Source: an uncultured Acidimicrobiia bacterium
Lineage (GTDB): Bacteria; Actinomycetota; Acidimicrobiia; IMCC26256; CAWATG01
Length of the DNA stretch: 64,000 nucleotides
NCBI GenBank assembly: GCA_963785035.1
Contig: CAWATG010000005.1
Span: forward strand, 287 to 64,286
Reading direction: 5' to 3'
The notes under the pieces were generated by a model, which made no database searches, was not told the origin of the DNA, and saw only the letters and a program-made list of their open reading frames with translations. Below are positions 1 to 64,000 of this stretch, piece by piece. Positions within the stretch are counted from its first letter, which is position 1. The number at the start of each line of letters is the position of its first letter. The position numbers and the translations under genes are program-made.

Positions 1-81
1 CGTGGGTATGGAACAGCGCGTCGCCGTTGTGGTCCGTGACCTCGATGTCAACCGTTCACCTTTGACGGGCTGGGCGAACCG

Positions 82-974
82 CTATCGCATCCATGCTCGT
101 GTGGCCGGATCCCACTCCCCCGCCATTGCCTCTTCACCAAGTATCGGGTCAGCGAAATCGGCAATGGCCGCGATGGTCTCGGCAAAGTCGGCGGGCACCT
201 CGTCACCGAGACCGCTGCGGTTCACGAACTGCTCCCAGGCGGACTGTCTCGTAGCGGCCAGCGTGACGAGCACCGTTCGCAGGGGTCGCAGGTCTGAGCG
301 GCGGTGGGCTCCGGTCGCGTGCACGGCCGCAGCAAGCTCGGCCGCGCCTAACCGCGTATCGCTTCGTGAGCACGAAGACGTCGGCGAAATCGCGCTCCCT
401 GGTCGTGGCGTCGCCGCTATCCACCATCGTGACGATCTTCTCGGCAAGCACCGTCTCCAGCGGGTAGCCGACCACGGTGAACGGCTCAGCCAGAAGAGCC
501 GGGTAGGTGACCTCGACCGGTGCGGGCGTCACCGGATCACCGACATTGACATCGACGCGAAGCGGATGCCTGGAACGTGCCACACCGGCAGGGACCACGA
601 TGCGTACCCCCGTGTAGAGATCCGCTTCGCGGATCACCTGGGCTCGCAACTTGGAAGGATCGAATACAACCCCGTCATCGACCTCGACAGCCACGATCTC
701 GCGTACCAGGCCGGCAACGGCTTCCACGTTGTTCGTCACCCGCTGCGCCAGGAGATCGACATCAGCGGTGGGGCGCCGCTCATCGAAGACGGCAAGGAGC
801 ATCCCGCCCTTGAGCACCAGACGGTCGCGATGTGTCGAGACCGAAAGGCGATAGAGGAACCGTTCGAGGATGTAGAGCACGAGTAGCTCGTCGGTGGGGC
901 GACCATCGCGGCGCCTTTGCCTGAAGATCCAAATAGGCCCGCCCGCCAGTGCTGTCCCTGCTCGGGTGCGTCAC
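82..974 (-). pseudogene. abiEii: AbiEii/AbiGii-family nucleotidyltransferase toxin (type IV TA), two frame breaks as assembled
   Basis: GTG at 974 overlaps the abiEi stop (GTGA). The protein reads across three frames: VTHPSRDSTGGRAYLDLQAKA (frame of ORF 780..1013) -> RRDGRPTDELLVLYILERFLYRLS...KGGMLL...ADVDLL...TRERDFADVFVLTKRYAV (ORF 203..880) -> LGAAELAAAVHATGAHRRSDL...FADPILGEE (ORF 82..447). Breaks are near ~915 and ~350. Confidence 0.75.
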
Positions 975-1570
975 GCGCTCAACACCCGCATCGCACTCGA
1001 AAGTGGTGTCCAAACCCGCAACGCCCGAGCGAAGTCGGCGACTCGGCCGGGCTTGGGTCGATCTCCCAGATACCGACGAAGCGCTTCGTTGGCCATGTCC
1101 TCGCCGATCAGATGCCGCATCCGAAACACGTCGACAACCGTGCGCTCCCGATCACTGATCCAAAACCGCTCACCGTGCTCCTGGCGAACCTCGACGCGCC
1201 CCAGACTGAAGGTCGCAGCACGAAACACATGCGCCTTCGTCGGCGGATAATCGATCGTTGGCCGATGCGAGCCCTCGGGGACCGCCACATGCACCTCGAT
1301 CGGGATCTCGTCACTCAGATCCCAGTAGGCAAGCGCCGAGTTCAAACAGATCATCCCGTGTGGGACGCGGGCACAGACAGCGACGAAATCGACGTTGCCG
1401 GTCCCCGCCGCCTCGGCAAGTTGGAAGAGACCCCTCGACAGCTCGACAATCACGCCGTCGTCGCGCAGGCGATACAGATCTCGCCACGACACGCCCACAG
1501 CGATGGCATCCCTCGAGCGGAACACCACACCAAGGCGTCGGAGCCGATCAAGAACAACAGCACCACGCAC
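971..1570 (-). CDS. abiEi: AbiEi-family antitoxin / transcriptional regulator (type IV TA)
   Basis: Intact 199-aa ORF with a GTG start. It has an N-terminal wHTH-like segment (RDAIAVGVSWRDLYRLRDDGVIVELSRGLF) and the C-terminal domain typical of AbiEi/COG5340 proteins. It overlaps the toxin start by 4 nt. Confidence 0.8.
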   Translation of the reverse strand: MRGAVVLDRLRRLGVVFRSRDAIAVGVSWRDLYRLRDDGVIVELSRGLFQLAEAAGTGNVDFVAVCARVPHGMICLNSALAYWDLSDEIPIEVHVAVPEGSHRPTIDYPPTKAHVFRAATFSLGRVEVRQEHGERFWISDRERTVVDVFRMRHLIGEDMANEALRRYLGDRPKPGRVADFARALRVWTPLSSAMRVLSA

Positions 1571-1617
1571 GTATGAAATCCTACATAGCTAAGGCTCATC
1601 TCAGGTGGATTTCATAC
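1571..1617. promoter_or_regulatory. Candidate abiE operator: perfect 11-bp inverted repeat with a 25-bp spacer
   Basis: GTATGAAATCC (1571-1581) and GGATTTCATAC (1607-1617) are exact reverse complements. They start immediately upstream of the abiEi start codon (1570) in a locally AT-richer patch. Confidence 0.5.
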
Positions 1618-1660
1618 ACGAGCGGACCACCCGACATCGGGGCGGCGCAGCAGCGACCCA

Positions 1661-2791
1661 TCAGCGCGTCCCGAACGATGCATGAACAACAGCCGAGTGA
1701 CGATCCTGCTGCGTGCGGCGCGCCTCGGCGAGCCGCTCACCGAAGCCGATGGCGATCGCCTCGTCCAACTCCGGGAACAGATGGCCATAGCGGTCGAGCG
1801 TCACGCTGATCGACGAGTGACCCATGCGGCTCTGAATCGCCTTCGGATGCGCTCCCTCGGCGATTGCCAACGCCACGCTCGTATGCCTGAGATCATGAAA
1901 GCGACATTTGAAGCCCGCAGTTCGCAGCGCCGGTTGGAAGTAGTGCTGCCAATAGCTCGACGAGATGAGCGGGTTGCCGACCTTGTTCGGAAACACCAGC
2001 GAGTCCGGACCGGGACCAACAACGCTCCCCACGTGCTCGGCGAGGATCTCTGCTGTCTCGGGCGAGATCGTGATCGAACGCACGCCCGCCGCCGTCTTGG
2101 TCTCCTTGCGCAGCCACTCGCCCGACTCGAGCCGGATGAGCTGCTCGGTCACCCGGACCTTTCGGCGATGGAGATCGACCTTCGAACGGCGAAGCCCAAC
2201 CAGCTCGCTCCATCGCATGCCCGAGTCGACGGCGAGGTAGATGAGCGCGCGGTACCGCTCATGGGTCGCCTCGGCCAGATCGACCGCCTCCTCCCACGAA
2301 AGGAACATCATCTCGCGCTTGGGCACCCGCGGTGGCTGAACACGGCCGCACGGATTGGTCGGGATCTTCTCCTTCTCCACCGCCACCTGGAGCATCCGAC
2401 GCAGGGTGCGGTAATGACGATGCACCGACGACACCGCCAAGCCCGAAGCGATCTCGTCGTTGAGCCAGTTCTCGATCTCATCGGCGGGCAGTCGACCAAG
2501 GCGATAGGCGCCGAACCTCGGCAGGATGTACCGCGACAGATCACGCCGGTAGGTCTCCTGCGTCGACGGGGACAACCGCCGCGCGAGCAGCAGGAACTCC
2601 TCGGCCCACACGCCGAGCGCGACGTCGGCGCCGGCCGGATCGATCCACCGGCCTCGATCGATGTCGACCTGCATCTCACGCAGGTAGCGCTCGGCATCGG
2701 CCTTTCGAGCGAAGGTCTCACACCGCTGGTGCCCGAGCGGGTCCCGGTACCGTGCGCGGTAACGGCCGTTGCGCTTCTCGATGAACCCCAC
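1661..2791 (-). CDS. int: Phage-type tyrosine integrase/recombinase
   Basis: Start placed at GTG 2791, which has AAGGAGG 6 nt upstream. Catalytic signature residues are present (DSGMRWSEL, HDLRH, GHSSISVTLDRYGH). The 507-aa track ORF (to 3184) runs through the tRNA and is an over-extension. Confidence 0.9.
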   Translation of the reverse strand: MGFIEKRNGRYRARYRDPLGHQRCETFARKADAERYLREMQVDIDRGRWIDPAGADVALGVWAEEFLLLARRLSPSTQETYRRDLSRYILPRFGAYRLGRLPADEIENWLNDEIASGLAVSSVHRHYRTLRRMLQVAVEKEKIPTNPCGRVQPPRVPKREMMFLSWEEAVDLAEATHERYRALIYLAVDSGMRWSELVGLRRSKVDLHRRKVRVTEQLIRLESGEWLRKETKTAAGVRSITISPETAEILAEHVGSVVGPGPDSLVFPNKVGNPLISSSYWQHYFQPALRTAGFKCRFHDLRHTSVALAIAEGAHPKAIQSRMGHSSISVTLDRYGHLFPELDEAIAIGFGERLAEARRTQQDRHSAVVHASFGTR

Positions 2792-2940
2792 CTCTGCCTC
2801 CTTGTCCGTCCCAGGGAGCGTGCGGGGAGCACGCGGGGAGCGAAACCAGGGGTTTCCAGGGGGTTCCGGCGGTAACTGATGGACCCTGCCGGTAACACCG
2901 AAAATGGGGTCTGACCTGCATGTATAGCAGATCAAACCCT

Positions 2941-3015
2941 TGGAGGCGGCGACCGGAATCGAACCGGTGTACAGGGCTTTGCAGGCCCTTGCCTCAACCA
3001 CTCGGCCACGCCGCC
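2941..3015 (-). tRNA. tRNA-Cys (anticodon GCA), CCA encoded
   Basis: Minus-strand 75-nt cloverleaf read by hand: GGCGGCG-TG-GCCGAGTGGTTGAGGC-A-AGGGC-CTGCAAA-GCCCT-GTAC-ACCGG-TTCGATT-CCGGT-CGCCGCC-T-CCA. It has a 7-bp acceptor stem, 5-bp anticodon and T stems, and discriminator U. Confidence 0.9.
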
Positions 3016-3072
3016 AGGCGCACTCGATGTTTCCACCGAGCCCAGCAGCGTACCCGTATCCCGCCCAGAAGC

Positions 3073-10772: not shown

Positions 10773-11936
10773 TCAGGCCTCCAAAAGCGGTGGAGATGAA
10801 GGCGTGGTCGGCTGATGGTCGGTCACGCCTTCATCCTCATGCAGGTAACGCTGCACGGCGAAGGCAACGCCGACAAGTGCTGCGCCGAGCCCAACGAACG
10901 TCCCGCCATACACACCCGGCGAGTGATCCGAACCAAGGACGTCGAACGCGATGACGACCGTCGACGTCAAAGCCGTTACGGCTGCGAGCCAGGTTGTGAA
11001 TCGACGAGTGCCGCGACTCCCGACGGCGCCGACGACGAAAGCGAGCACCAAAGCTGTGCAGTGCGCCCGGAATGATCCCGACCGTGGTTCCCAATCCGGT
11101 CACAGCGGAGCTCAATGCGCCCAGCATCGGATAGACCACCGCCGTTCCAACCCGGTATGCACCCGCCCTGTCCAGGCGGATCAAGGCCATCAGCAAACCA
11201 GCGCCCAGCAGCAGGTTCACGATCCAATACGCATGACCCGGGTCGTCGGATCCGCTCTCGGGATAGTCACCGTAGTCATCCGACATTTCGTCGCTTTCCA
11301 TGTCGTCGGGGTTGTCCATGTCGTAGCTGTCCATGGGATCCGTGGAGTCGGAATTCGATGACGAGCTATATCCAGCCTGCTGCTCCCATGGAGCGATCGA
11401 CATTGAACGCGTCGCTCGAAGCGCCCGGCAAGACGAAAAAGTTGGCGAACGCCACAATCACCAACAGGCCGACCGCGAGCAGCACAGTTCGCCCACGGGC
11501 CGGGCCCACCATGAACGTCGGCGAGCACCGTCAGTGCGATGAGTGCGGTCGTGACCTTGATCTTCGTGAGATCGCCCTCACCGGAGCCGAACATGGCAAA
11601 CAGCCAGAAAGCGGGAGCCGCGACAACCACGGCACCCGTCCCCGCCGAAGGAAAACGACGAGGAAGGAGGTGCATCACCAGCAGCGCGCCCACGGCGACG
11701 AGACCCATGAGCAGCGCGCCGAGAGCACCCGAGGGGTTGTCCGAGTCAATCCACTCGAGGCCAATGCCCGCGAAACCAACCGCTATGAGCGCACCCGCGA
11801 TGCCGGCGATCGCGACACCCAATCGGGGCTTCGGTCGCTCCTCGGCCTCGAGTTCGAACGTCGCGAATCGGCGCCATCCTGGTAACGACGGCGCGTCGCC
11901 GGGTCCGTCGACTGGTTCAGCGGTCGGACTGTCCAT
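10773..11936 (-). pseudogene. Polytopic membrane protein with an acidic loop, readable only across four frames (alternatively 2-3 small genes)
   Basis: AAGGAG lies 6 nt before ATG 11936. Reading: MDSPTAEP...TM helices...TTALIALTVLADV -> FMVGPARGRTVLLAVGLLVIVAFANFFVLPGASSDAFNVDRS -> APWEQQAGY + DSYDMDNPDDMESDEMSDDYGDYPESGSDD + TM helices -> LVLAFVVGAVGS...TM. Breaks are near ~11515, ~11400 and ~11055. I recognise no family. Confidence 0.4.
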
Positions 11937-19273: not shown

Positions 19274-20172
19274 ATGGGGCGAGAAGGCAACCCACGAGAA
19301 CACGCCGCAACCCTTCAACTCGTCGATCTCGCCGCCTTCGAGAAGGTCGACCTTGTCGGCGCAGCGGATCTGCATTGCAATTGTGGGTTTCCGTATAGCA
19401 CGGACCCGGTCGACGCCCTTGCAGCAGCGACCGACGCCGCAGCGGCACGCTTTCGGGCAATCGTCCTCACCTGCCCTGGAGTGCCCGACTGTGCTCGTCG
19501 CCAACGTGGTCGCGGCGGTGGTCCCCGATATCGCCGTCTTCGGCAGCGTTGCCTGCGAGCGGGAGATCGGCGGAATCAATCCAGCGGCTGTTGAAGCAGC
19601 ATTGCGAGGCGGCGCAAAGATCGTGTCGCTCCCAACTGTCGGAGTTCGCGGCGAAGCACGCATCGGCGTCCCTGGGAATCCGGCGGCTTCGGCACCGCCG
19701 ATCGCTGTCTGCGACGACGAAACCGGTGAGCTGCTCTACCACACGCACGAGGTGATGGCGCTTGTCGCCCAGCATGACGCGATCCTTGCCACTGGACACA
19801 TCTCGCAGTTCGAGAGCTACGCCGTTGCCAAAGCCTTCGCCGGCAAGGGCAGGATTATCGTCACGAACGCCACTGAGCTTCTCACCGCCGACCAATGCAT
19901 CGAACTCGTCGCCCTTGGCGCAACGATCGAGATCACCGCAAAGACGTTCATCGGCAACGACGCGACGCGAGCACCCACAGAAGCTGGAGCATTCATTCGC
20001 GCAATCGGGACCGACCACGTCGTCTTGAGCAGCGGTTTAGGCTCGGGCGCCGATGGTGCAACCGGCTCGCGGGCTGCACCACTTCGCCGAAGCGCTGGTG
20101 ACGAGTGGCGTGACAGATTCGGCAGTGCGCCAAATGGCGTGCACGAACCCGGCCACGCTGCTCGGGTACTAG
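19274..20172 (+). pseudogene. Amidohydrolase-like (TIM-barrel metal hydrolase) protein; two frame breaks as assembled
   Basis: Reading: VDLVGAADLHCNCG...RFRAIVLT -> ALECPTVLVANVVAAVVPDIAVFGSVA...ILATGHIS...IIVTNA...DHVVLSSGLGSG -> PMVQPARGLHHFAEALVTSGVTDSAVRQMACTNPATLLGY. Breaks are near ~19470 and ~20050. The family assignment is tentative. Confidence 0.5.
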
Positions 20173-27638: not shown

Positions 27639-30600
27639 TCAGCGTGATGCGCCGAGCAACCCCTCATTGGCACGTTCGATCCGAACCACCTCCGATAGCG
27701 GCGCGACACGCCAGAGAAAGCGGCTCGTTGCTTGCCAGTCCGCAAGCAGTTCCGCCGCACGACGCGAACCGGTGAGCCCACGATGCTCCTCCAGCAGTTC
27801 CCTCACCTCCGCGAGTTCCTCATCATCGGGCGCGACCGCGTCGACGAGCTGGCGATTCAGCCTGGCGGCCAAGAGCGCTTCTTCGTCGACGATGAACGCC
27901 CGACCACCGGTCATGCCAGCCCCGAGGTTGTATCCGAACGGGCCGAGTATCAGGACCGTCCCGCCCGTCATGTACTCACACGCATGGTCACCGGTGCCTT
28001 CGACGACGGCCGTCGCACCACTGTTTCGAACTGCGAAGCGCTCACCAACCCGACCTGCTACGAAGAGCTGGCCGCCGGTCGCGCCGTACAACACGGTGTT
28101 GCCCGCCAAGACTGGATCGCCCGCGTCATCCGCTGGTGGTCGCACCACGATCCGACCCCCGCCCTGACCTTTGCCGACGTAGTCGTTGGCCTCGCCGATG
28201 AGGTCGAGCGTGACCCCATCAGCCAGGAAGGCACCGAAGCTTTGTCCTGCCGTGCCGGTGAACCGCGCCTTGACCGAACCCGCCGGTAACGACCTTCCCC
28301 ATTCCAGGCCGATAGCGCCACCCAACGAGGCGCCGATTGCACGGTCCGCTCCGGTGATCGTGTAGTCGAGCGTAATTTCGCCGCCTTCCCACAATGTTCC
28401 GAATGCATCCAGGTACAGCTGCTCGTCGAGTTCCGAGCGTGGACGCTGGATCGGCATACCCGCAACAAAGTGCCGCGGCGCGGCGGCATCGCCCGGCATG
28501 CACAACAAGGGCGCCAGGTCCAACGAATCGGTACGCGTATCCCCCGTCACGCTGCTGTGTGAGGAGCTCAACCCGCCCGATCGCGTCATCGAGGGAACGC
28601 AGGCCGTTCTGTGCGAGCAGAGATCGCACCTCCTCTGCGACGAACAGGAGGTATTGCGCAACACCTTCAGGTGTCCCTGCGAACTTGCGGCGCAGATTCG
28701 TGCGCTGCGTGGCGATGCCCGTCGGACACGTATCCCGATGACAGGCTCGTACCATGATGCAACCCTCGGCGATCATCACGGCTGTGCCGAACGAGTACTC
28801 ATCCGCACCGAGGAGCGCGGCGACGAGCACATCGCGACCTGTCTTGAACCCGCCGTCGACACGAAGACGCACGCGATCGCGCAGCGCGTTTTCAACGAGT
28901 GCCTGTTGCGTCTCTGCGATGCCGAGCTCCCAGGGCATGCCCGCGTGTTTGATCGACGACAATGGCGATGCCCCCGTACCACCATTCGCGCCCGAAACTT
29001 GAACCACGTCCGCAAGCGCCTTCACGACACCCGCTGCAATCGTTCCAATGCCGGCTTCGGCGACCAACTTCACCGACACTGCTGCTCGCGGGTTGACCTG
29101 CTTGAGATCAAAGATCAATTGCGCGAGATCCTCGATCGAATAGATGTCGTGATGCGGCGGTGGCGAGATCAGACCGACACCAGGCTGGGTATGGCGCAAG
29201 CGCGCGATCTCAGCGCTCACCTTGTGTCCCGGGAGCTGGCCACCTTCACCAGGCTTGGAGCCCTGAGCAATCTTGATGTTCAGCTCATCGGCAAAGGCGC
29301 AATACTCGGGTGTTACCCCGAAGCGCCCCGACGCGATCTGCTTGATCCTGGAGTTCTTGTCTACCGCTTGGCCTCGGGTTCGGAAACGCGCGGGATCCTC
29401 GCCGCCCTCGCCGCAGTTGCTCTTGCCGCCGATGAGATTCATCGCGACAGCGATCGTCTCGTGGGCCTCCTTGCTCAGCGAACCGTGCGACATGGCACCC
29501 GTGGAGAAGCGACGTGTGATCGCCTCGATGGGCTCGACCTCGTCCAGCGGGATCGGACTGCCTGCCGGAAGAATCTCCAGCAAGTCGTGCAACTCCGTGG
29601 TCGGTCGGCTCTCCACAAGGTTGCGGAACTGGTCGTACAAGTCGGAACGACCATCCTTGACGGCTCGCTGCAACACGTGCGCGGCGCGAAGATCAACGGG
29701 ATCGGGCCTGGCCATCAACTCTGCCGGCACCGGTTCGATGATCGACGCCGGACCCAGAATCATGACGCTTCCCTGCTCCTCGGGCGGCGCCGGCTGCAAT
29801 GATCCGAGAGGAGCAATGGTCTCCGATGCTGACGAGGGACCACCTGCATGTTCCAGCACCCGCGATCCGATCGCGCTGCCCTTGTCGGTGCTACGTCGCT
29901 TCGGTTCAGCGTCGCTGCCGCTGCTTCAGTCTCCACACCTGCCACGGCATGTATACCGTCAGCAACTTCGGGATTGTTGGCGTGATAGTCACCGCCACGC
30001 TTGCGGAATCGAACCCAGCCTGGCTCGTCAAGCTGAGCAACGTCAGCCGCGAATCCCTCCTGATGCCGACTCAATGCGTCGAGCCCGAGCTCGGCGAATC
30101 CGATACCGCCGACAGTCGACGTCGTCTCGCGCAGGCACCGATGGATCACCGATGGGCCAAGTCCGATGACTTCGAAAATCTGCGCCGAACGGTACCCCTC
30201 GACAGTGGAAATGCCCATCTTGGCGAAGATCTTCAGCACGCCGTCCTCGACGCCGGCCTGGTACTTCGCCTGGGCATCTGCGGAGTGCAACTCGCCCAGC
30301 TGGTCGTCGTCGGCCATCGCCGCGACGCTTTCGAGTGCCAGCCGCGGACACACCGCGTCGGCGCCATAGCCCAACAGGCATGCAACGCCATGTACGTCGC
30401 GCACATCGCCGGAGTCCACCACGAGCGAAACCAGCTGACGGACATGCGAATCGATCAAGCGATGATGCACAGCCCCCAGGGCAAGGAGCGACGGCACAGG
30501 AACGCGCTCATCGCTGACCCGTCCATCGGAGATCACGATGATTCCCACTCCACCCTCGATCGCGTGCAGCGCTTCGAGCGAGATGCGTTCCAACGCTGCT

Positions 30601-51703: not shown

Positions 51704-51708
51704 TCACA

Positions 51709-54108
51709 TCACGTCGCTGTTGTGCGGCGAACCCACCACACCACCTCGAGCGCGACGATCGCGAACGCAACCATGACAGCGACCTCGAAACCGAGCGCTG
51801 CGAACGGAGCGTCCAGCGCGAAGAACTCGGCAGCTCGCGGTATCGCCACAACGGCGCATGCCGCAGTGACAATGGCTGCGACAAGACCGACCCGCCATGG
51901 CGTCAATGGACGGGCCGCCAGCACCAACACCCAAAGACTCACGGCGAGCAAGACCAGCGTTGCAACCGTCGTCGACTGCTCGCGACTGAGATCCCGATCA
52001 AGCGCGAGCCCATATGCCGACAGACACGTGAGAGCAGCAATCGCGCCCCCGGGCACAGCAAATCGCAGCACGCGACTAATGAATCCAGGCACGTATCGCG
52101 CGGTAGATGGTGCAAGCGATAGGAAAAATGCAGGGATTCCGATCGTGAGGTCACCAATCACCGTGACATGGCGTGGCAGGAGCGGAAATTGCCATCCCTC
52201 CTCGAGCACCATCTCCGTAATCACGATCACGACGGCCAACAGCATGCTGTAGACGGTCTTTGTCAAGAACAGGTTCGAGACCCGCTCAATGTTGGAAATG
52301 ACGCGTCGCCCCTCGCTCACGACTCCCGGCATCCTTGCGAACTTACCGTCAAGAAGCACGAGCTGCGCGACCGCACGAGTTGCCGCCGCTCCGGATCCCA
52401 TAGCGATGCCGATGTCAGCATCCTTCAATGCCAGTGCGTCGTTGACGCCATCGCCCGTCATTGCCACGACATGCCCGCTGGACTGCAGTGCACGCACCAT
52501 CGAGCGCTTCTGGTGGGGCGTGACACGACCGAACACAGCGTGTGTTTCCAGAAGTGCAGCAAGCTCCGCCTCATCTTCGGGAAGCTCTCGGGCGTCGAAG
52601 ATCGCCTCGGCGTTCGGAAGCCCTACTCGTGCAGCCACCGCACCAACGGTGTGCGGATTGTCGCCAGAGATCACACGAAGCCCGACGCCTTGCTCCGTGA
52701 AATATGCAAGCGTCTCGCGAGCATCATCTCGAACCTTTTCCTCCAACGTCACGAGTGCGACGGCATGCAGGGCCGACGGAAGCTCCTCTCCGCTGGGCTG
52801 TTCATCGCTCCTTGCGCAGAGCAACACGCGCTTCCCGGTGGCAGCAAGTTCCGTCGCTCGCACACGCGCAGCCGCGATCGCACCGGTGTCATTGATGCTG
52901 TCCCACAGCATTTCCGGGGCGCCCAGTACCCACGTGCCATGTGTCTCGAACGTGACCGAGCTCCACTTGCGAGCCGAGGAGAACGGCACCTGGCCTAGGC
53001 GAGTCCATGGCACCACCGGTGGAACGCAACCCTCGCCGACTGCGCGAAGCGTCGCATTCGCATCAGGATCAACGGCCATCGCACCGAGTGCTTCCTGGGC
53101 TCGCGCAACCCCGCTCTCATCGGCAACCGCTTCGATACCGGCGAACTCAACCTCGCCCTCGGTCAAGGTTCCCGTCTTGTCCAAACAGACGATGTCGACT
53201 CGGGCCAGTCCCTCCACTGCAGGGAGTTCCTGAACCAAGACCTTCCGTCGAGCCAAGGTCGTCGCTGCAACCGCAAAAGCAATGCTCGTCAACAGCACCA
53301 GTCCCTGGGGAACCATCCCGACGACAGCAGCAATGGTCGATCGGAGCGCGCCGGCAACGTCGCTGTCATGTGACGCGAACTGGCTCCAATACAAAAAACC
53401 GGCCACAGGAACAAGCGCCCACGTCACGAAACGCAGAATGACGTTGATGCCATCCATGAGCTCCGAACGCGTCAGCGCAAAACGGCGAGCCTCGATCGCG
53501 AGCTTCCGTGCATACGCCTGATCACCCACTCGTGTTGCCTGGAACTGGCCTGAGCCGGCTACCACGAAACTCCCCGAGAGCACCTCGTCGATCCAGACCC
53601 TTGACAACGGGATCCGATTCGCCGGTTAGTAACGACTCATCCAATTCGAGTCCGGTCGAAGTCCGAACGATGCCGTCACAGGGAACCTGATCGCCGACGC
53701 GAAGCACGACAGGAGGTCATCGAGCACGACATCATCGACGGCAATGTCATGTTCCGCGCCACCACGCACGACGCAGGCGTGCGGTGCGTTCAGTACAGCG
53801 AGGCGGTCAAGCGTTCGCTTCGCACGCAATTCCTGGACAATGCCGATCAAGGCATTCGACACCAACACGCCCACGAACAAGCCGTCTTGAATCGGCCCGA
53901 TCACGACGATGATGCCGAACATCACACCCAAGATCGCGTTAAAACGGGTAAAGATATTCGCAGATGCAATTTGGGCAAATGTTCTGCTCGTGCGCGCCGA
54001 GCTACGGTTGTCATCACCACGAGCGCGACGGTCAGCAGCCTCTGACTCCGTGAGCCCTTCCGGGTTCGTGACCCATGTGCTCAGCGACGCTTCACCAGTC
54101 TCAATCAC
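51709..54108 (-). pseudogene. Cation-transporting P-type ATPase (HAD-IC family); a pair of frame breaks ~100 bp apart as assembled
   Basis: I propose GTG 54108 as the start. Reading: ...DIAVDDVVLDDLL (ORF 53626..54234) -> LRVGDQVPCDGIVRTSTGLELDESLLTGESDPVVKG (ORF 53522..53707) -> IDEVLSGSFVVAGSG...CLDKTGTLT...GDGVNDALALKDADIGIAMG (ORF 51709..53607). Confidence 0.8.
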
Positions 54109-54133
54109 AATGATTGTGCCCGCAATTTCCTGA

Positions 54134-55369: not shown

Positions 55370-55372
55370 ACG

Positions 55373-56608
55373 TCACGTCAGTCCGAATACCACAATGGCC
55401 AGAATAAGCGACAGGGCGCCCAACAGATCGAGGCTTGAGGTCACGATGGGAATCCCATGATTGTCCGGGTCGAGTCCAAGGCGCCGCGACGTCACCGCAC
55501 CGTAGTAGCCGATCACCACGGCACAGGTCGTCGCGAAGAAACCCGCAAGCACGGAAACCCCGACCATCGTCGCCAATCCTGGGCCGCGCAGATTCACTAC
55601 GGACGCCGCAATTTCTGATGAGACACCGAGGAAAATGAACACTGGAACTGCGTAAACGTAGATTAGGAGAATATCGCCGCCCACCGTCTGCAGGGGCGAC
55701 CTGGACAAATCAAGAGTCCCCAGATGGAGTTTGGTGGACACCCTCGCCGCCAGAATGCCCCCAAGCGACCCGGCGTCCTCAAGAAATGGCGGGACCAACA
55801 CCAACAAGGCCGGGTACACCATAAATGAATCAAGACGTTTCTGAATCGTGATACCCGCGATCACATCGACGGTGCCGGCCAACACGAGCACGGGCGCGGA
55901 CTCGCGCACAATCCTGCGAACGATTGGCAGACGGCTTCGCAGGCTCATGACAAGCGACACGGTGGCACCGACCCCACAGATGACTGCGATCGCGGGCGTC
56001 ACCCACCGGATCCCAACAAGGTGCGTGGCCAGGAACAGCGCTGGGAGCGTCACCATGTCACCCGCGGCCGTCACGATCGGTGAGGCGACGTTATCGAGAT
56101 CCCAGCTCCTCCGGACACTTACCCAGGCGACGAACACCGTGATGCCCATCACCACGACCGATGACAGCAAGCCACCAATGACCGAGATCACAGCGAGGTC
56201 CAACACGCTGATCGAATCGACGAGACCGAATCCGACCGACACGACACGCGGAAGAACCGCAAGCACTAACGAGATCGAGACAGACAGGGCGAAAGACGCG
56301 ACCAAATTCTGTCCGAACAGCGTGTCGCGCCGGCGCGACAGCACAAACGTTCCAGCGTGAATCGCAGTGCCGAGACGGCTGCCGAGCGCGCCGAAGATGT
56401 TGCCCCGCATACCAATCGCAGCGGGGACGAGCACCAACAGACCCGGGAGACTCTCGAGGGTCCCGGTAATCGAACCGAGCGTCAGACCCGCGAGAAGATC
56501 ACCGGCAGAGGAGATAAGCAGCGCGACGAATCCCGCTCGGACCCCGATCGGGTCTGAGCGCACCAACGCGCGGAATCGCGCGACGAGGACGCGCAACCAG
56601 CGGAACAT
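55373..56608 (-). CDS. Tandem MgtE-type transmembrane-domain (SLC41-like) divalent-cation transporter lacking the cytosolic MgtE N/CBS domains
   Basis: Intact 411-aa polytopic protein with two homologous halves (PGLLVLVPAAIGMRGNIFGALGSRL... / PALLVLVPPFLEDAGSLGGILAARV...; DNVASPIVTAAGD / DNHGIPIVTSSLD). Confidence 0.7.
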   Translation of the reverse strand: MFRWLRVLVARFRALVRSDPIGVRAGFVALLISSAGDLLAGLTLGSITGTLESLPGLLVLVPAAIGMRGNIFGALGSRLGTAIHAGTFVLSRRRDTLFGQNLVASFALSVSISLVLAVLPRVVSVGFGLVDSISVLDLAVISVIGGLLSSVVVMGITVFVAWVSVRRSWDLDNVASPIVTAAGDMVTLPALFLATHLVGIRWVTPAIAVICGVGATVSLVMSLRSRLPIVRRIVRESAPVLVLAGTVDVIAGITIQKRLDSFMVYPALLVLVPPFLEDAGSLGGILAARVSTKLHLGTLDLSRSPLQTVGGDILLIYVYAVPVFIFLGVSSEIAASVVNLRGPGLATMVGVSVLAGFFATTCAVVIGYYGAVTSRRLGLDPDNHGIPIVTSSLDLLGALSLILAIVVFGLT

Positions 56609-56721
56609 GGGTACTCGGAGGCTCGTTCATCAGGCATTCTCGGTCTCATCGGCCCGCGCAAGGGTAGTCTCCCGCCGATGGTCCTTCGTGCCACCGCCGT
56701 GGGCGCGTAGTCTCCTCCCCC

Positions 56722-57366
56722 GTGCGGAAGACCGGTTTTGAATGCGGCCAGGTTCTCTTCCTTACCCACAGCGGCGACGTCGACGAGCGAGGTGTCCGGG
56801 TCGTCATCGAGGCGATCCAGGATCAGCGCCTCACCGTTGTATCCGTCGATGGCGAAGAGTTAGATGCCTCCTTCGCCGAGGACAGCACCGTGTGGGCCAA
56901 TTTCCTCTCACCCCGCGGCATGTTCGTTGTCGAGATGTTGGTCAGCCGCTCCGGTAAGACGACAGCCGCGCTCGACGTTCCCGACAACCTGCACGAAGCG
57001 CAACAACGCCAACACGTCCGAGTACGAGCCGACATTCCGATCTCATGCCTTCTCCTCGACGATGAGGCCAACGAGTTCTCCCAGTTCGTCGCCCGCATGA
57101 TCGACATCAGCGGCGGAGGCATGGCGATCGCCGGTGACGTCATTGCACCGGATCGATCGCGCGTCGTCTGTTCGATCGCTCTACCAAACGAAGCGCCGGC
57201 CATTGCCATTGGACTCGTTCTCGGCTCCGACCTTCCCACCAAGGAAGGGCACACGGCCCACACTCTGCGCGTGCGATTCGATGTGATCTCCGAGGGAGAA
57301 CGCGACCGGGTCATCCGTTGGGTCTTCGCCAACCTCCGCAAGCTCGCACAGGAGGGCCTCGCCTGA
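56722..57366 (+). CDS. PilZ-domain c-di-GMP-binding protein (YcgR-like architecture)
   Basis: RxxxR (QRQHVR) and D-x-S-x-x-G (DISGGG) lie about 35 residues apart, preceded by an N-terminal beta-rich domain. The GTG start is uncertain. Confidence 0.7.
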   Translation: MRKTGFECGQVLFLTHSGDVDERGVRVVIEAIQDQRLTVVSVDGEELDASFAEDSTVWANFLSPRGMFVVEMLVSRSGKTTAALDVPDNLHEAQQRQHVRVRADIPISCLLLDDEANEFSQFVARMIDISGGGMAIAGDVIAPDRSRVVCSIALPNEAPAIAIGLVLGSDLPTKEGHTAHTLRVRFDVISEGERDRVIRWVFANLRKLAQEGLA

Positions 57367-57386
57367 CCGCGTCGTAGTACCCACGT

Positions 57387-60300
57387 CTACCGAAAGTCTC
57401 TGGAGTGCAACGATCCGGCCAGGCTGATCGGTAAGCGCGTGATCCGCGTCGCGACAAGGTTGGTCACCCCCTGATGGCGTTCCACGACACCTCGTACCCG
57501 TAACGCCGGCGCACCACGAGCCGCGACACGAAACCGCTTCCACACGCCCCTCGAACAGATCACATTGATGAGACCTGTCTCATCCTCGAGATTCAGAAAC
57601 ACCGTTCCCTTCGCCGTTTCGGGCTGCTGCCGATGCGTCACGATTCCGGCAACTTCCACCACACTGCGATCAGAAACGGTGCGCATCTGTTCGGCCGTGA
57701 TGACACCTTGCGCCGCAAGGTCATCACGCACGAACTCCGTCGGATGTCGCCCCGGCGACATCCCCATCGACCACAGATCTGACGCCAGCTCCTCGGACTC
57801 GCTCATCCCCGGAAGCTCGGGTGCATCCACGCCGCAGAGCAGCCCTGGCAAGGTCGCCGCCACCACCCCATCAGCGGTGACTCTGGCTCGAGCGTCACGC
57901 AACGCTCCCGCAGCCCACATCGAAGTTCGCCGCGCTTGACCGAAGGACTGTTCAAACACGCCCGCCGCTGCGAGTACCTCGACGACATCGACAGTGGCAC
58001 CCGTACGGCGGACAAAATCCTCGAGACTTTCGAACGGGCGCTCAGTACGCACACCGTCGACATAGTCGAGAAACACATCGTGCAGCCCACGCACGGACCG
58101 CAGCCCCATCCGTACGGCATGAACCGATGGCTCCGCATACCAACCGGGCAATGGGCGACCAATAGGCTCGACGTGTGACGGACGCGGCTCAAGGGTCGCG
58201 TCACGACGTGAGGCGTTGATGTCGGGACCGAGCACTTCGATACCGTGACGACGGGCATCGCGCACAATCGTGTGCGGCGAGTAAAAGCCCATCGGTTGCG
58301 CGTTGAGCAACGCACAAGCAAACTCCGCTGGGTAGTGATACTTGATCCAGGCGCTCGAGTACACGAGATACGCGAAGCTCACCGAATGACTCTCGGGAAA
58401 ACCGAAGTTTGCAAATGCCTCGAGCTTCTTCGTGATGTCCTGGGCAACCTCGCCGGTGATACCTCGATCGGCCATGCCGTCCAACAATCGAGCACGGAGC
58501 TTGGCCATGCGAACCTGCGACCGTTTCGAGCTCATCGCCTGACGAAGCTGATCGGACTCCGCCGGCGTGAAGCCAGCAACGTCGATTGCCATCTGCATCA
58601 GTTGCTCCTGGAACAGCGGCACGCCCAATGTCTTCGCCAGGCACTTCTCGAGCAGCGGGTGTGGATAGGTGACCGCTTCCTCGCCGTTGCGGCGCCGGAG
58701 GTATGGATGCACGGACCCGCCTTGGATCGGACCAGGTCGGATCAGGGCGATCTCGATCACCAGGTCGTAGAAACACCGCGGTCGTAGTCGTGGCAGGGTC
58801 GCCATCTGCGCTCGACTCTCCACCTGGAACACGCCGATGGTGTCAGCGCTACAGAGCAGGTCATAGACCTCATCTTCTTGAGAAATGGTTGCCAGGTCGA
58901 TCTCGACACCTTCATAACGGGCGATGAGGTCGACAGCGAGGTGCAACATGGTGAGCATGCCCAGGCCGAGAAGATCGAACTTCACCAAGCCGGCAGCAGC
59001 ACAATCGTCCTTGTCCCACTGAAGGACCGATCGGCCTTCCATACGCGCCCACTCAATCGGGCAGTACTCCACCAACGGTCGATCCGCCATCACCATCCCG
59101 CCTGAATGGATCCCGAGATGGCGCGGAAAATCGAGCACCTGCGCGGCGAGATCGAGCGCGAGAGGTGGGATAGCCGGCGGTCGCGTCGCTACCCCCTCGG
59201 CGATATCAGCACCCGATGCGCCGGCTTCAGCCAGCTCAGCAAATGCTTCGGGCCCAGCACTCCAACGCTGTACCCATTTTCCGAGTGCATCGGCTTGGCC
59301 CGGCGCGACGCCCACAACTTTTGCCATCTCACGCAGCGCGGAACGCGGCCGGTACGTAATCACGTTCGCAACCTGGGCAGCACGCTCACGGCCGTAGCAG
59401 TCATAGACGTACTGGATCACTTCCTCACGACGTTGATGTTCGATGTCAAGGTCGATATCGGGTGGACCGTCACGCTCAGGTGACAGGAAGCGTTCGAAGA
59501 GCAGGCCCAGCGCGACGGCATCTGCCTTGGTCACCCCGAGCGCGTAACACACGGCACTGTTCGCGCTGCTCCCCCGTCCTTGGCAGTAGATGTCCGAACG
59601 ACGACAAAAATCAACGATGTCGAACAGCAACAGGAAATACCCGGCAAAGCCGAGCTGATCGATGACCTCCAACTCGTGTGTCGATTTGATGCTGCGCCTG
59701 CTCATGTTGTGGATGCGTCAATGGGTAGTAGACAGCGGCGCCGCGCCAGACGAGCTGACGCAACCAACTCATCTCGGTATGGCCATCGGGCACCGGATAA
59801 TCAGGCAAGTTCGGCGCGGCCAGCCGCAGATCGAACGCGCAGGCCTCCGCAATCTCAACGGTGCGCTCAATCGCTCCAGGCCAACGTGCAAACCTCCGCA
59901 TCTGCTCAGCCGGCGAGCGAAGATGCGCGAGTGGCGAAGCCGGCAGCCATCCGTTTGCCTCGTCAAGCGTTCGGCGTGCCCTGATTGCGCTGAGTGCTGT
60001 CGCCAACGGGCGCTGTGCAGCAGTTGCATAGTGAACGTTGTTTGTTGCCACAACGTTCACTCCCGCAGTGAGTGCAATGTTCGCAAGTGCATCGTTGCGA
60101 TGTCGATCGAGTGGATCATTGTGATCCCAGAGCTCCACGAAGACGCGGTCACGCCCAAACGTCGCCGTGAGGACGTCGAGTTCGCGGCGGGCAGCTGCAG
60201 GCCCGTCAGCCATGAGTGCTGCAGGTACCGTCCCCTTACGACATCCAGTCAGGACGAACCAGGCATCATTGTGTGTTGCAGTATTTCCAGTTGCAGCATT

Positions 60301-60726
60301 TCCATCGGAGACGATGAACAGGCGCCACGCGATGCCGCTCCTAGGGTTGCGAGGTCACAATGGGGCGCGCCTTTCTTCGCCGCGGAGCTGCGCCTGACTG
60401 ATCGCACGTGCCAAGCGCGTGTATCCGACAGGACCTTGCGCCAACACGAGCAGATGCCGTCCTGGTGGATCCGGTGCCCCTGGTTGCGTGGCGCTGCCGT
60501 CGAACGTCATCTCCGCACCGAAGACCGTCGGCAAACCGAGGGGACGCGCCGCCTGAGCGAAACGCACGACGCCGTAGAAGCCATCGTGATCAGTCACCGC
60601 TAGCGCACCGAGACCAAGGCGCACAGCTTCTTCGACAAGCTCCTCGGGGTGACTCGCACCATCAAGAAACGAGAAGTTCGTATGACAGTGCAGCTCTGCG
60701 TATCGTCCGTCTCCCACGTTCTCCAC
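57387..60726 (-). pseudogene. dnaE2: Error-prone DNA polymerase III alpha subunit DnaE2; in-frame TGA plus one frame break as assembled
   Basis: PHP domain (YAELHCHTNFSFLDGAS). An in-frame TGA at 60355-60357 sits inside conserved sequence (...LRGEERRAPL*PRNP...WFVLTGCRKG...). The frame break is near ~59690 (HEQAQHQI | KSTHELEVIDQLGFAGYFLL). The rest is collinear with DnaE2 (CQGRGSSANSAVCYALGVT...). Confidence 0.85.
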
Positions 60727-60784
60727 GCCCTACCCAGCCAAGCTCCTACGGCCTATTCCGCCGCACCCGAGAGCCCAGACGATA

Positions 60785-60800
60785 ACGAACATATGTTCGT
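60785..60800. promoter_or_regulatory. LexA (SOS) box, perfect 16-bp palindrome ACGAACATATGTTCGT
   Basis: It matches the Gram-positive/actinobacterial SOS-box core CGAAC-N4-GTTCG exactly. It is centred about 65 bp upstream of the dnaE2 start (60726, minus strand) and about 215 bp upstream of the divergent HNH gene ATG (61008). Confidence 0.8.
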
Positions 60801-61007
60801 ATCGTCAATTGGCCGGCCGCACGATCCAGCGAATCCGCTCGGCATGACTGGTCGAACCCGATCTGCGAGAACGACACTCCGCGGTCATGATGACGACAGG
60901 TGAGAGCTTCAACGTCCCCCTGGTTCACCCCAGTACCGGCGGCGCCACAACGCCCCGATCCGGACGTCTGCGGAATAACTGTCATATACCGCCGTCACAC
61001 TGTGGGT

Positions 61008-62090
61008 ATGACATCGGAATCCCACGCAGAGCCCAGCGACTCGCAACGCGTCCTCGCACTCATCGAGAAGCGTGATCTCGTTGAGCGAGAGCTTGTCGGC
61101 GCGCTCGCCGAATGGGACTTCGAACAGCGTTGGGCACTCGACGGGGCAGTCCATCCCATCCCCTGGCTCGTCCATCACTGTGCCATCACACGCGCCGAGG
61201 CATCGCAACTGGTCGCCAAAGCACGCGTCGTACAACGATGCGACGACATTGCCGACGCGCTTGCCGACGGAATACTCAGCACGTCGCACCTCGGGCTCCT
61301 TGCGCGCGCCGGACGACATCGCGAGCAACTGCTCGAAGAGCATCAAGGCGTATTGGTAGACGCAGCGCAGTCCGTTCCACCCGAGCAATACCGACAGGTC
61401 GTGCAACGCTGGCAGGCACTCGCCGACGACATCATCGCCGATGCCGAAGCAGTCGACGCCTTCGAGCACCGTCGCCTGCACGTCTCGACCACCTTCGAAG
61501 GCTCCGTCGCGATCAATGGCCGACTCGACCCTGAGGGTGGCGCTCGCCTCATCGCCGCCCTCAAGGACGCTCTGCCTCCGAGCGGCGGAACCCCCGCACA
61601 GCGTCGCGCCGATGCACTCGTCGCTCTCGTTACCGGCGAACGGCCGGGTGTCAAGCTCCATCTCGTCGCCACCGAAGCGACGCTCACAACCTCGCCTGCA
61701 TCCCCGGGCTCCTCAGCGGTCCTCGATCAATCCAGTAGCGAGATCTCGGGGCTCGGTACCGTCCCAGCCAGCATCAGCCGGCGCCTCGCGTGCGACGCAA
61801 TCATCGACACACGCGACACCGCTGGACTTTCACTCGGGCGCTCGCGACGGCTGGTCTCTCGGTCGCAGCGTCAGGCGCTCACCGTTCGTGATGGGGGCTG
61901 CTCATTCCCTGGTTGTGACCGTCCCCCCGAATGGACCGACGCTCATCACCTCCAACACTGGGCAGATGGCGGCAACACCGATCTCGAAAACCTCGTGCTG
62001 CTGTGTCGGCGTCATCACGTGTTGTGCCACGAGGGAAGGTGGCGCCTCGAACGCATGACCGACGGCCGTCTTATGGCAGTACCGCCGTAG
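61008..62090 (+). CDS. DUF222-domain HNH endonuclease (13E12-repeat-family-like)
   Basis: Intact ORF. It has an N-terminal DUF222-like helical region and a C-terminal HNH motif (RDGGCSFPGCDRPPEWTDAHHLQHWADGGNTDLENLVLLCRRHHVLCHEG). ATG 61008 is preferred over the 60900 start. Confidence 0.8.
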   Translation: MTSESHAEPSDSQRVLALIEKRDLVERELVGALAEWDFEQRWALDGAVHPIPWLVHHCAITRAEASQLVAKARVVQRCDDIADALADGILSTSHLGLLARAGRHREQLLEEHQGVLVDAAQSVPPEQYRQVVQRWQALADDIIADAEAVDAFEHRRLHVSTTFEGSVAINGRLDPEGGARLIAALKDALPPSGGTPAQRRADALVALVTGERPGVKLHLVATEATLTTSPASPGSSAVLDQSSSEISGLGTVPASISRRLACDAIIDTRDTAGLSLGRSRRLVSRSQRQALTVRDGGCSFPGCDRPPEWTDAHHLQHWADGGNTDLENLVLLCRRHHVLCHEGRWRLERMTDGRLMAVPP

Positions 62091-62117
62091 CCACCTGACA
62101 CGTCTCGCCGAGCACAC

Positions 62118-63764
62118 TCAGTCGTAGATCGCAGCAATACCGGCGCGGCCGCCTTCGAGGACCACTAGGCATGCGACATCGTTCACGACCATCTGCCATA
62201 ACGCTCGGCGACGACGCGCGATGCGATCCCACCAACCAACATCGTGCGTCCACGGCCCGTTCCACGCGCTGATCTCACCACCGCCCAGTGGGAGTGCGCG
62301 AGACCTCACCCATCCAGGATCGCCGGAAACTTCCCCACGCCCAGAAACTGCGATGGCATTGCCATATACATCAAGTAACTCTGCAGGCAACGCTGGCTCG
62401 AAGACACGCGATGGCGGCGGTGTCGGTACCGCTCCCGGCCACGCGCCAGGACGCGCTCCATCACCTCGCGCTTCTCGCGGCTCGCCCCAGGACACCCATC
62501 GGACCCGCTCACTCGGCAGTCGACCACCTTGAGGCATTGCCGTCACGACTGACTCATGACCCAACATCGCCTGCACCCGTGCCAAAGCTCGCTTGGCACG
62601 ATCAGCACTCGCGAGATCTCCCCCCCAAAAACCCAGCTGGCGACCATCAATGGTCACAACTTCCTCGGGGAGGAGCCGCAACACCAGGAGTCCACCGGTG
62701 GCAACCTCGGCGTCGGCAAGCTCGGCGTCGGCCGGCGCGCCCGTCCGTACCCGTGCCCACACCGAGCCAGCTCTCAAGCTGCCAGCGTGCCCGATCGGCT
62801 AGCGCGCTCGGCGTGAAGGCACCATCGTGTCGCCATGCCCGTGACCAATGCTCGCCATGCTCGGTTTCCGCTTCGATCACGATACGCGTACACGCCATCC
62901 CGCGATCAGCCAGTCGAGTCAGCATGTGATCGGCAAGCGCCTTCGCTGCAAACGTTGCCAGGTCGACACGTTGACAAGGTGGATCGAAATTGTGTGTCTC
63001 GATCATCTCCGGGGGCACTTCCGCCAGTACTGACGGTGCATCATCCAGGCCGCGTGCCCATCGATGTCGACGTAACCCATCAGGACCAAAGCGCACATGC
63101 ACTGCCGACGCCGGCAATGCAGCAAATGCACCCATCGTCGGTAAGCCCAGCCGGATCAAAAGCGCGCCGAAATCAGGATCCCCCAACACGCGCACCGACC
63201 TCGGCGCCAGGAACAACGCTGACTCCCCGGGCGCTATCACCGCATCGACACGTGCTGCTTGACGCGCAGCGAAACGACTATCGGCAATCCCCACCCGTAC
63301 TGCAGGAACCCCAAGGTCCGTCACCGCCGATCGGACACGCTCGGCAAGCATGTCATCACCACCGAAATACCGAGAGGGTCCACGTGTAGGAAACGACAAC
63401 ACGCCAGGCCTGTCCATCTCAAGACGCGGCGTGAGTGTCTCAACTGCTCGTGCAACTTCTTCAAATGCCCGCGCCTCACCAATGAGATCGGCATCAACTG
63501 CAACCAGCCCAGGCGCTCGAGCTTCCGCGACGCGCGCCGACGCATCCCGATCGTTACCCCAAGCGCACGGGCCTCACCCGATACCGCTCGCACCACGGGC
63601 GCACCCGTCGCCGACTCGAATACTGCGAAGGGAGCCCACGACAAGGTTTCGTCCCGCCGACGCCACGCAACGACTGGCCAATCAGGACACCAGACGCAGC
63701 AGGTCCGCTCAGCCCATACCCCTTCAACCGGTCGCTGCCCAGCCGATCGCTGTTCATCAGACAT
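62118..63764 (-). pseudogene. imuB: ImuB (Y-family-polymerase-like mutasome subunit); two frame breaks as assembled
   Basis: Reading: MSDEQ...CVWCPDWPVVAWRR...ARALGVTIGMRRR -> EARAPGLVAVDADLIGEARAFEEVARAVETLTPRLEMDRPGVLSFPTRGPSRYFGG... -> RTGAPADAELADAEVATGGLLVLRLLPEEV...WWDRIARRRRALWQMVV. Breaks are near ~63540 and ~62765. Confidence 0.8.
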
Positions 63765-63782
63765 CTGTGGCAAGCATCCACT

Positions 63783-64000
63783 TCAGCCAACGAGTGCGAG
63801 CGTTTCCCTGCCACGCGCCTCAACGCGAACAGTGCGCGCACGGTCGATCAGGTGACCGCCGCCTGATTCGAGCCCACGCCACGCCGACCTCTCGGCATAG
63901 ACCCGTACTGCAGCCTCTGCCGGCCATGGACCCAAGATCGCGAGTACGGCATCGCGTTCACGCGCCCGCCCAACAAGGCGATGTGCATCACCGGTCCGTA
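63783..64000 (-). CDS. imuA: ImuA' (RecA-fold mutasome subunit), C-terminal fragment; gene continues beyond the window
   Basis: The minus-strand frame reads ...RTGDAHRLVGRARERDAVLAILGPWPAEAAVRVYAERSAWRGLESGGGHLIDRARTVRVEARGRETLALVG, with a stop at 63783-63785, 18 nt before the imuB ATG. Confidence 0.6.
   Translation of the reverse strand, partial: RTGDAHRLVGRARERDAVLAILGPWPAEAAVRVYAERSAWRGLESGGGHLIDRARTVRVEARGRETLALVG

Follow-up and report, generated by a model that had tools for sequence, protein, structure and literature searches.

We found that 15 conserved genes in the window, by which we mean the whole 64-kb stretch of DNA analysed here, part of an Acidimicrobiia genome, are interrupted by small frameshifting indels, and we consider it probable (at about 0.88) that these are insertion errors left uncorrected in the consensus of a long-read MAG. 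We favor this reading, which comes from comparison of sequences, because the breaks are indels of one or two bases relative to intact close relatives, because the repaired genes lack stops and are under normal purifying selection, because the indel spectrum within genes is sharply unlike the natural intergenic one, because the relatives that show the signature are the Nanopore-only MAGs, and because the 705-kb source contig is typical in size of long-read assemblies. A first-pass annotation of this DNA had likewise preferred assembly insertion errors over selective decay, and indel type, selection, spectrum and the Nanopore-MAG signature all point the same way. The source assembly is most likely Nanopore-only, of the metaFlye plus one Medaka round type, a technology that we infer. 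Its reads would not be expected to support the extra bases, and all 15 genes are most likely intact in the organism itself.

As references we used short-read Logan contigs (L081-L098) from relatives with 92-99% identical DNA. These cover 60.6 of the 64 kb in colinear alignments spanning window positions 1-2298, 2965-23107, 24628-48100 and 48636-64000. Most of the contigs are ~94% identical to the window; L093 reaches 97.5% and L098 reaches 98.8%. All 15 broken genes are intact in these contigs, a result that as many as five independent sequencing runs bear out; with the closest references 1-6% diverged, it shows intactness of the relatives and not of the window's own genome. Every break is an indel of one or two bases within otherwise matching sequence. 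The two abiEii breaks are the sole indels over the 2.3 kb aligned to L098, and the two imuB breaks are the sole indels relative to L093. These near-identical contigs superseded protein-level deletion scanning, which with orthologs 80-85% identical resolved breaks only to 2-10 nt. A GC3 frame plot was, at 63% G+C, too noisy for locating frame switches.

The ~24 frame breaks that the first-pass annotation had listed in 15 conserved genes were all present, and 24 of 24 were placed to the exact base (Table 1). Twenty-two lay within ~20 nt of the position first given, one in gltB was 35 nt off and the one in the CocE-like gene was 91 nt off. By codon-phase arithmetic 21 of the 24 had been assigned to the class of one extra or two missing bases, in agreement with the exact events (19 single extra bases, two extra bases in three cases, two missing bases in two). 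The three breaks described as of opposite type turned out to be the two-base insertions in gltB, the P-type ATPase and imuB. Two further breaks in dnaE2 bring the total to 26 sites.

Table 1. Frame-breaking sites in the window, with each event described relative to the contigs of relatives.
Gene	Position	Strand	Event	Reference or test	Remarks
abiEii	349	-	+1 (T on + strand)	L098 (98.8%), L094	Sole indel besides 910; AbiEii intact there, 297 aa
abiEii	910..911	-	-2 (GC lost from short GC repeat)	L098, L094	
HMGCS-like::DUF35	5668	+	+1 (G)	L089	22 distant orthologs switch frame 1 to 2
HMGCS-like::DUF35	6268	+	+1 (T)	L089	24 orthologs switch frame 2 to 3
crotonase	8636	+	+1 (G)	L089, L090	Switch backed by 31 orthologs
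membrane protein	11059	-	+1	L089, L090	Intact gene in relative, 395 aa
membrane protein	11381	-	+1	Logan contig alignment	
membrane protein	11520	-	+1	Logan contig alignment	
hyuA	15845	+	+1	L089, L090, L091	Switch backed by 35 orthologs
hyuA	15995	+	+1 (T)	Logan contig alignment	Switch backed by 31 orthologs
DUF6282 (amidohydrolase-like)	19473..19477	+	+1	L089, L090, L091	Pfam DUF6282 match starts downstream, frame 3
DUF6282 (amidohydrolase-like)	20055	+	+1	Logan contig alignment	
periplasmic binding protein	23010	-	+1 (C)	L091, L092	P0277 intact, 421 aa
gltB	28553	-	+1 (T)	L095	Glu_synthase and GXGXG domains in different frames
gltB	29914..29916	-	+2	L084, L085, L087	
alpha/beta hydrolase	39382	+	+1	L084-L087, L096	
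acyl-CoA dehydrogenase (fadE-like)	45213	-	+1	L084, L096, L097	
vanW-like	45893	+	+1 (T)	L084, L096, L097	P0149 and P0151 (656 aa) cross break in two frames
CocE-like S15 peptidase	51444	-	+1	L081, L082	First-pass position ~51535
P-type ATPase	53590	-	+1	L081, L082	E1-E2_ATPase profile positions 29-65 and 68-181 in different frames
P-type ATPase	53709..53710	-	+2	Logan contig alignment	
dnaE2	59680	-	+1	L081-L083	P0121 is intact 1113-aa product
dnaE2 linker	60310..60326	-	+1, +2, -1 (net +2)	Logan contig alignment	Frame returns
dnaE2	60379	-	+1	Deletion test	Brings TGA at 60355-60357 into frame
imuB	62744..62749	-	-2 vs L093 (97.5%); +4 vs L083	Logan contig alignment	
imuB	63530..63531	-	+2	L093	imuB intact there, 548 aa

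Evidence from proteins agrees with these placements. Pfam profile coordinates continue across breaks, as in the binding protein, where positions 1-187 and 188-341 of the Peripla_BP_6 profile are split between two fragments. Each of five plus-strand breaks checked by frame switch is backed by 22-35 more distant orthologs. The gltB homologues listed included no near-identical relative, and the C-terminal break of this gene was fixed with L095 instead. Natural splitting of orthologs into separate genes at the same points had been raised as what would speak against the breaks; at each of the sites the orthologs keep to one frame.

An in-frame TGA in dnaE2 had been taken for a lesion other than an indel, a claim that did not hold. 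We rejected a nonsense substitution at this codon, as the codon lies in a stretch shifted by the extra base at 60379, with the frame back at ~60320. Once base 60379 is removed, the stop disappears and 17 residues again match those of the relative exactly. The net +2 event in the dnaE2 linker (60310-60326) is adjoined by an in-frame 15-nt difference. We also rejected the view that the two breaks in each of the ATPase, imuB and gltB compensate functionally for one another, since conserved sequence sits in the shifted frame between them. That frame gives Pfam matches in the ATPase and gltB and aligns to the intact ortholog P0297 in imuB. In the ATPase, the unshifted frame meets a stop between the two breaks.

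Frameshifts affect ~15 of 47 genes, housekeeping genes among them, at a density of ~0.5 per kb, or roughly one for each 2 kb. Longer genes carry more breaks (Spearman 0.49, p = 4e-4), as had been proposed from inspection of the letters. Fifteen genes were struck, compared with 18.5 +/- 1.8 expected under random placement, and the breaks are mildly clustered along the window. Within genes, insertions dominate the frameshifting changes (26, with 3 deletions), whereas between genes the same alignments show 8 insertions and 17 deletions, and many of these intergenic indels are multi-base (Fisher p = 1.5e-5 for genic versus intergenic). Only 4 of the 23 single-base insertions copy a neighbouring base, so they are unlike slippage mutations. 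No break site lies in a long homopolymer run, the location typical of the classical Nanopore profile. Read on the plus strand of the window, 19 of the 23 inserted bases are G or T and none is A (p = 0.003). No motif near the insertions survived multiple testing in a k-mer search, which thus gives no support for a systematic error of the methylation-motif type.

The first-pass annotation had suggested comparing break type with that in related genomes. We made this comparison with ten genes of the same operon in loci of related Acidimicrobiia, setting Nanopore-only MAGs against short-read MAGs. The Microflora Danica (MFD) MAGs were built from Nanopore reads alone and polished by one Medaka round, and their authors mention that Nanopore-associated errors may be present where coverage is low (PMC12313526). 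Across 157 kb of MFD loci there were 25 frame breaks, mostly of the +1 type (19:6), compared with a single break across 271 kb of short-read MAG loci (p = 2e-10). The share of +1 breaks in the MFD loci was not different from that in the window (p = 0.5). Two MFD loci (L004 and L015) had many isolated single-base insertions outside homopolymers relative to a near-identical short-read locus (L018); a third (L058) had few relative to L072.

These observations are consistent with a long-read metagenome assembly left without polishing by accurate reads. Every 2 kb or so, its consensus would retain one, sometimes two, spurious bases, and it would rarely lose two. The error process would ignore coding, so that long genes would be struck more often and the conserved protein would resume in the next frame. 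Indel errors described in Nanopore-only assemblies and in the MFD loci are likewise scattered, one or two bases long and present at ~0.5 per kb; they too split conserved genes, scale with gene length and are absent from short-read assemblies of relatives, and the MFD loci share the +1 bias (PMC12007338, PMC12313526). However, long-read assembly errors are usually described as homopolymer-linked indels, and deletions outnumber insertions in most of the assemblies tabulated (PMC12007338), whereas the window has mostly insertions, outside homopolymers. The strand asymmetry of the inserted bases is a further difference from described errors, for a window whose sequencing technology is itself deduced. 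Both the insertion-dominated profile outside homopolymers and the bias toward G or T and never A, for which we have no explanation, count against an assembly artefact. The asymmetry could in principle be a replication-strand mutational bias rather than a product of software.

We considered whether the frameshifts are true and reflect very recent pseudogenisation, through lost selection on many genes or a mutator episode. The breaks do stand in the deposited assembly, the divergence of the references leaves room for lineage-specific mutations, the asymmetry of the inserted bases could be linked to replication, and the mild clustering is compatible with such an origin. Base substitutions exceed indels roughly 10 to 1, and 26 neutral indels therefore imply hundreds of substitutions, with on the order of 10 stops. 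After removal of the indels, none of the 8,812 codons of the 15 genes, read in the relatives' frame, is a stop (chance of none < 5e-5). Their dN/dS is 0.13, compared with 0.10 in 32 intact genes, and is thus not raised as would be expected under relaxed selection. The mixed set of lesions expected of pseudogenes (nonsense mutations, larger deletions, a deletion bias) was not found in the broken genes, which have no large deletions and a spectrum opposite to that of the deletion-rich intergenic DNA. The inserted bases do not copy their neighbours, core genes such as gltB are struck, and an identical signature occurs at other positions in many unrelated Nanopore MAGs and not in short-read MAGs. 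Pseudogene-rich genomes in reductive evolution, such as those of Mycobacterium leprae and recently host-restricted symbionts, resemble the window in having frameshifts in a large share of genes, including housekeeping genes. Unlike them, the window lacks the other marks of decay, has events of one or two bases only and has relatives at 97.5-98.8% identity in which the genes are intact. We therefore regard pseudogenisation as improbable. Less probable still is a recent burst of real, untemplated, strand-asymmetric single-base insertions outside repeats, in coding and non-coding DNA alike. Such a burst, in a natural Acidimicrobiia lineage, would have to be so recent that neither substitutions nor nonsense mutations had yet come after it, and it would imply an unusual mutator state prone to insertions. 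The imuB-dnaE2 mutasome genes of the window are themselves among those struck.

A possible but doubtful form of the assembly artefact, and a sub-type of it rather than an alternative, is that a mixture of strains led the consensus to write both alleles in succession. This would fit events that are insertion-only, outside homopolymers and sometimes two bases long, as well as the several sites (15845, 39382, 29914-6 and 51444) at which a base adjoining the extra one differs from the relative, and the short-read graphs of relatives branch in the window's region. However, the flanks match perfectly over +/-3 nt at about half of the sites, and at ~6% divergence chance alone gives a nearby mismatch at roughly a third of sites. 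Expression of the split genes by programmed recoding, through ribosomal frameshifting or transcriptional slippage, might be suggested by the seamless continuation of conserved protein in another frame at every site. Programmed frameshifts such as the +1 shift of prfB, the -1 shift of dnaX and those of IS3-family transposases also resume the protein in the shifted frame, on defined slippery sequences that are conserved among orthologs. By contrast, no motif is common to the 26 sites, all of them lie outside slippery runs and long homopolymers, and no site is conserved in any relative, including those at 97.5-98.8% identity. With both +1 and +2 shifts present as well, we give recoding almost no weight.

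The breaks are almost certainly a warning about data quality and not a sign of genes dying in nature. About a third of the genes in the window, including gltB, dnaE2, imuB and the P-type ATPase, are liable to misannotation as pseudogenes or fragments, and metabolism, pseudogene load or genome decay read from this or similar Nanopore-only MAGs would mislead. We claim no biological importance for the breaks, as the genes are most likely intact. The error signature (insertion-dominated, outside homopolymers and strand-asymmetric) may help builders of polishing tools. Fragments of the window's own genes (P0001, P0125, P0126, P0156, P0276, P0280, P0286 and P0296) are on record from its source, a 705,113-bp contig deposited in NCBI/ENA, so the breaks belong to the public assembly, and fragments are already stored as separate truncated proteins in public protein collections. 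The MFD MAGs are also deposited in NCBI/ENA, and truncated dnaE2 or gltB products are found in many relatives as well, on contigs of 0.2-4.6 Mb.

The window belongs to an uncultured Acidimicrobiia genome and has a G+C content of ~63% with a GC skew that is negative throughout. In searches with hyuB, the top relatives among GTDB species representatives had 85% protein identity, and many of these are Microflora Danica (MFD) long-read MAGs. Gene fragments from the window are found in NCBI/ENA, and all come from one 705,113-bp contig, showing that the reading-frame breaks are present in the deposited assembly.

An intact dnaE2 product of 1113 amino acids from Logan assemblies of SRA runs falls within the 90% cluster of the window's dnaE2 fragment. 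Using this product and other cluster members, we retrieved 18 contigs of relatives from several runs, and colinear alignment with these covered 60.6 kb of the window. Identity was mostly ~94%, with two contigs reaching 97.5% (L093) and 98.8% (L098). Except for gltB, every gene listed as broken in the first-pass annotation is a single unbroken ORF in these contigs; for gltB, the relatives' N-terminal and C-terminal contigs are both open. L093 and L098 each differed from the window by two indels in 2.3 kb, both frame-breaking, and by no others.

Coordinates and sizes of features discussed in the text
Feature	Position	Strand	Size	Remark
HMGCS-like::DUF35			520 aa	intact in relatives
crotonase			266 aa	intact in relatives
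membrane protein			395 aa	intact in relatives
hyuA			695 aa	intact in relatives
DUF6282			298 aa	intact in relatives
binding protein			421 aa	intact in relatives
alpha/beta hydrolase			289 aa	intact in relatives
fadE-like			426 aa	intact in relatives
vanW-like			639-656 aa	intact in relatives
S15 peptidase			769 aa	intact in relatives
P-type ATPase			798 aa	intact in relatives
dnaE2			1113 aa	intact in relatives
imuB			548 aa	intact in relatives
AbiEii	85 to ~980		297 aa	intact in relatives; island, toxin-antitoxin pair with AbiEi
AbiEi	974-1570			island, toxin-antitoxin pair with AbiEii
integrase-like ORF	1661 to ~2870			putative, named from translation alone; adjoins tRNA-Cys
tRNA-Cys	2941-3015	minus		island
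predicted secreted protein	47833-49314	plus		five tandem ~45-aa repeats (GNGYW/RLVASDGGIFSYGDAKFYGSTGN)
dnaE2 +1/+2/-1 cluster	60310-60326			restores frame
dnaE2 extra base	60379			shifts frame
DUF222/HNH endonuclease gene	60900-62090	plus		between imuB and dnaE2
dnaE2 C-terminal fragment (P0001)			772 aa	NCBI/ENA record
gltB N-terminal fragment (P0125)			880 aa	NCBI/ENA record
hyuA fragment (P0126)			666 aa	NCBI/ENA record

All 24 breaks that the first-pass annotation had listed were found in the alignments with relatives, and 22 of its positions lay within ~20 nt of the event; this confirms the observation and its remarkable precision. The other two positions were looser, with the gltB event at 29914-6 lying 35 nt away and the peptidase break being at 51444, not ~51535. 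At the base level, 19 breaks consist of a single extra base. Two-base insertions account for three (29914/29916, 53709-10, and 63530-1) and two-base deletions for the remaining two (910, and 62745 when compared with the closest relative). These events bear out the assignment of 21 of the 24 to the one-extra-base or two-missing class (+1 type), and the three breaks called opposite in type are exactly the two-base insertions. We located two more breaks in dnaE2, an extra base and a cluster that restores the frame. Removing base 60379 changed LRGEERRAPL*PRNPRSGIAW to LRGKKGAPHCDLATLGAASR, identical to the relative, and the TGA at 60355-60357 vanished. This stop is thus a by-product of the frameshift and not a nonsense mutation, which removes the earlier caveat that it was not an indel effect.

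The same breaks were visible with more distant sequences. We compared translated ORFs from 80 hyuB-flanking loci with the window and found that at each of five plus-strand breaks, 22-35 orthologs share the position of the frame switch, which is invariably from f to f+1. DNA alignment with distant orthologs placed one surplus window column at four of these five breaks. The excess at ~6268 is 10 bases when the window is set against these distant orthologs and only a single base against a closer relative (L089). Pfam coordinates continue across breaks in profile matches on the fragments. Peripla_BP_6 is split between two binding-protein fragments (profile 1-187 and 188-341) and E1-E2_ATPase between two frames (29-65 and 68-181). 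The gltB domains are distributed across three fragments, the dnaE2 PHP domain is divided between two, and the DUF6282 match begins mid-profile. The chance that programmed recoding operates at these sites is negligible.

Real, very recent mutation would leave other traces. Substitutions usually exceed indels about tenfold, so 26 neutral indels predict hundreds of extra substitutions and ~10 nonsense codons. With the window projected onto the frames used by the relatives, no stop occurred in the 8,812 codons of the 15 repaired genes, and their dN/dS was 0.13 at a dS of 0.175, compared to 0.10 in 32 intact genes. Genes that had only recently become neutral should also carry the intergenic indel spectrum. 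Frameshifting changes within genes comprised 26 insertions and 3 deletions of 1-2 bases each, whereas intergenic indels in the same alignments comprised 8 insertions and 17 deletions, many spanning several bases (p = 1.5e-5). The single-base insertions do not look like slippage mutations. Only 4 of 23 duplicate a neighboring base, below the random-base expectation (p = 0.004), and none of the 23 is inside a long run. Longer genes had more breaks (rho = 0.49), and the 15 genes broken are close to the 18.5 +/- 1.8 expected at random, with slight clustering. We consider real mutation improbable. The breaks are very probably an assembly artefact (probability roughly 0.88), in which uncorrected insertion errors would have been left in the assembly, and not a biological feature.

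Two in-frame differences from the relative are ordinary natural indels: the window lacks 27 nt at 11287-11297, in an acidic low-complexity region of the membrane protein, and has 9 additional nt at 47538, where the VanW-like protein has its proline-rich tail. Their recovery indicates that the alignments can separate natural from frame-breaking indels. At 43233, three codons into an SCP2-domain gene, the window is one base short in a C run; no other -1 event in a homopolymer is left uncompensated. This ORF stays open from a GTG located a few codons upstream, and the missing base may reflect either a genuine change of start site or an erroneous deletion.

We also probed the 80 loci from relatives with ten proteins that are intact in the close relative, to count their frame breaks. 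The 23 loci from MFD MAGs, a catalogue assembled from Nanopore reads alone with one round of Medaka polishing (PMC12313526), had 25 breaks over 157 kb of aligned coding sequence, compared to one in 271 kb in short-read MAG loci (p = 2e-10). Nineteen of the 25 were of the +1 type, a share matching that of the window, and at least one apparent -1 break was two single-base insertions 23 nt apart. Two MFD loci (L015 and L020) had break densities as high as the window's, ~0.5 per kb. Paired with the near-identical short-read locus L018, MFD loci L004 and L015 had many single-base insertions that stood alone and lay outside homopolymers, like those of the window; MFD locus L058, paired with its near-identical short-read counterpart L072, had only a few. 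One pair of MFD loci had ~70-80 gap openings in 18 kb, compared to one in 7 kb for a short-read pair. Together with the sequence tests, this control supports the first-pass preference for insertion errors. The MFD authors note that Nanopore-associated errors are possible where coverage is low (PMC12313526), and gene fragmentation from long-read error rates is well described (PMC12007338). Many dnaE2 and gltB homologs on NCBI/ENA contigs of 0.2-4.6 Mb are cut to 500-950 aa (P0023, P0093, P0115, P0159, P0166, P0172, P0176, and others). This suggests that the same gene fragmentation is a widespread problem among this clade's long-read MAGs, and the value of the finding is as a warning about this and similar MAGs.

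The window's profile is insertion-rich and non-homopolymer, unlike the homopolymer-linked errors reported for long-read assemblies, most of which have more deletions than insertions as tabulated (PMC12007338). On the plus strand the inserted base was G or T at 19 of 23 sites and never A, regardless of gene strand (G 12, T 7, C 4, A 0; p = 0.003), for example at 349, 6268, 15995, 28553, and 45893. Six intergenic single-base insertions were four T and two C. The forms GC[T]GC and GTC[G] occurred at three and four of the 23 sites, respectively, and no enriched k-mer was found at the insertion sites. Because the window lies on a single replication arm, forward-strand software and a replication-linked effect are inseparable as sources of the G/T bias. 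The finding perhaps also describes an error signature.

Positions 1-3015 form a small integrated island, and the alignment of the ~94% relative starts only at 2965. A 98.8% identical copy of its AbiE module adjoins a transposase gene in another sample. The relative's short-read contigs that reach the predicted secreted protein gene stop inside it, at 48100 and 48636, indicating that the repeat breaks short-read assembly. The DUF222/HNH endonuclease gene is located inside an imuA'-imuB-dnaE2 mutasome cassette, as it is in two close relatives (L081 and L083).
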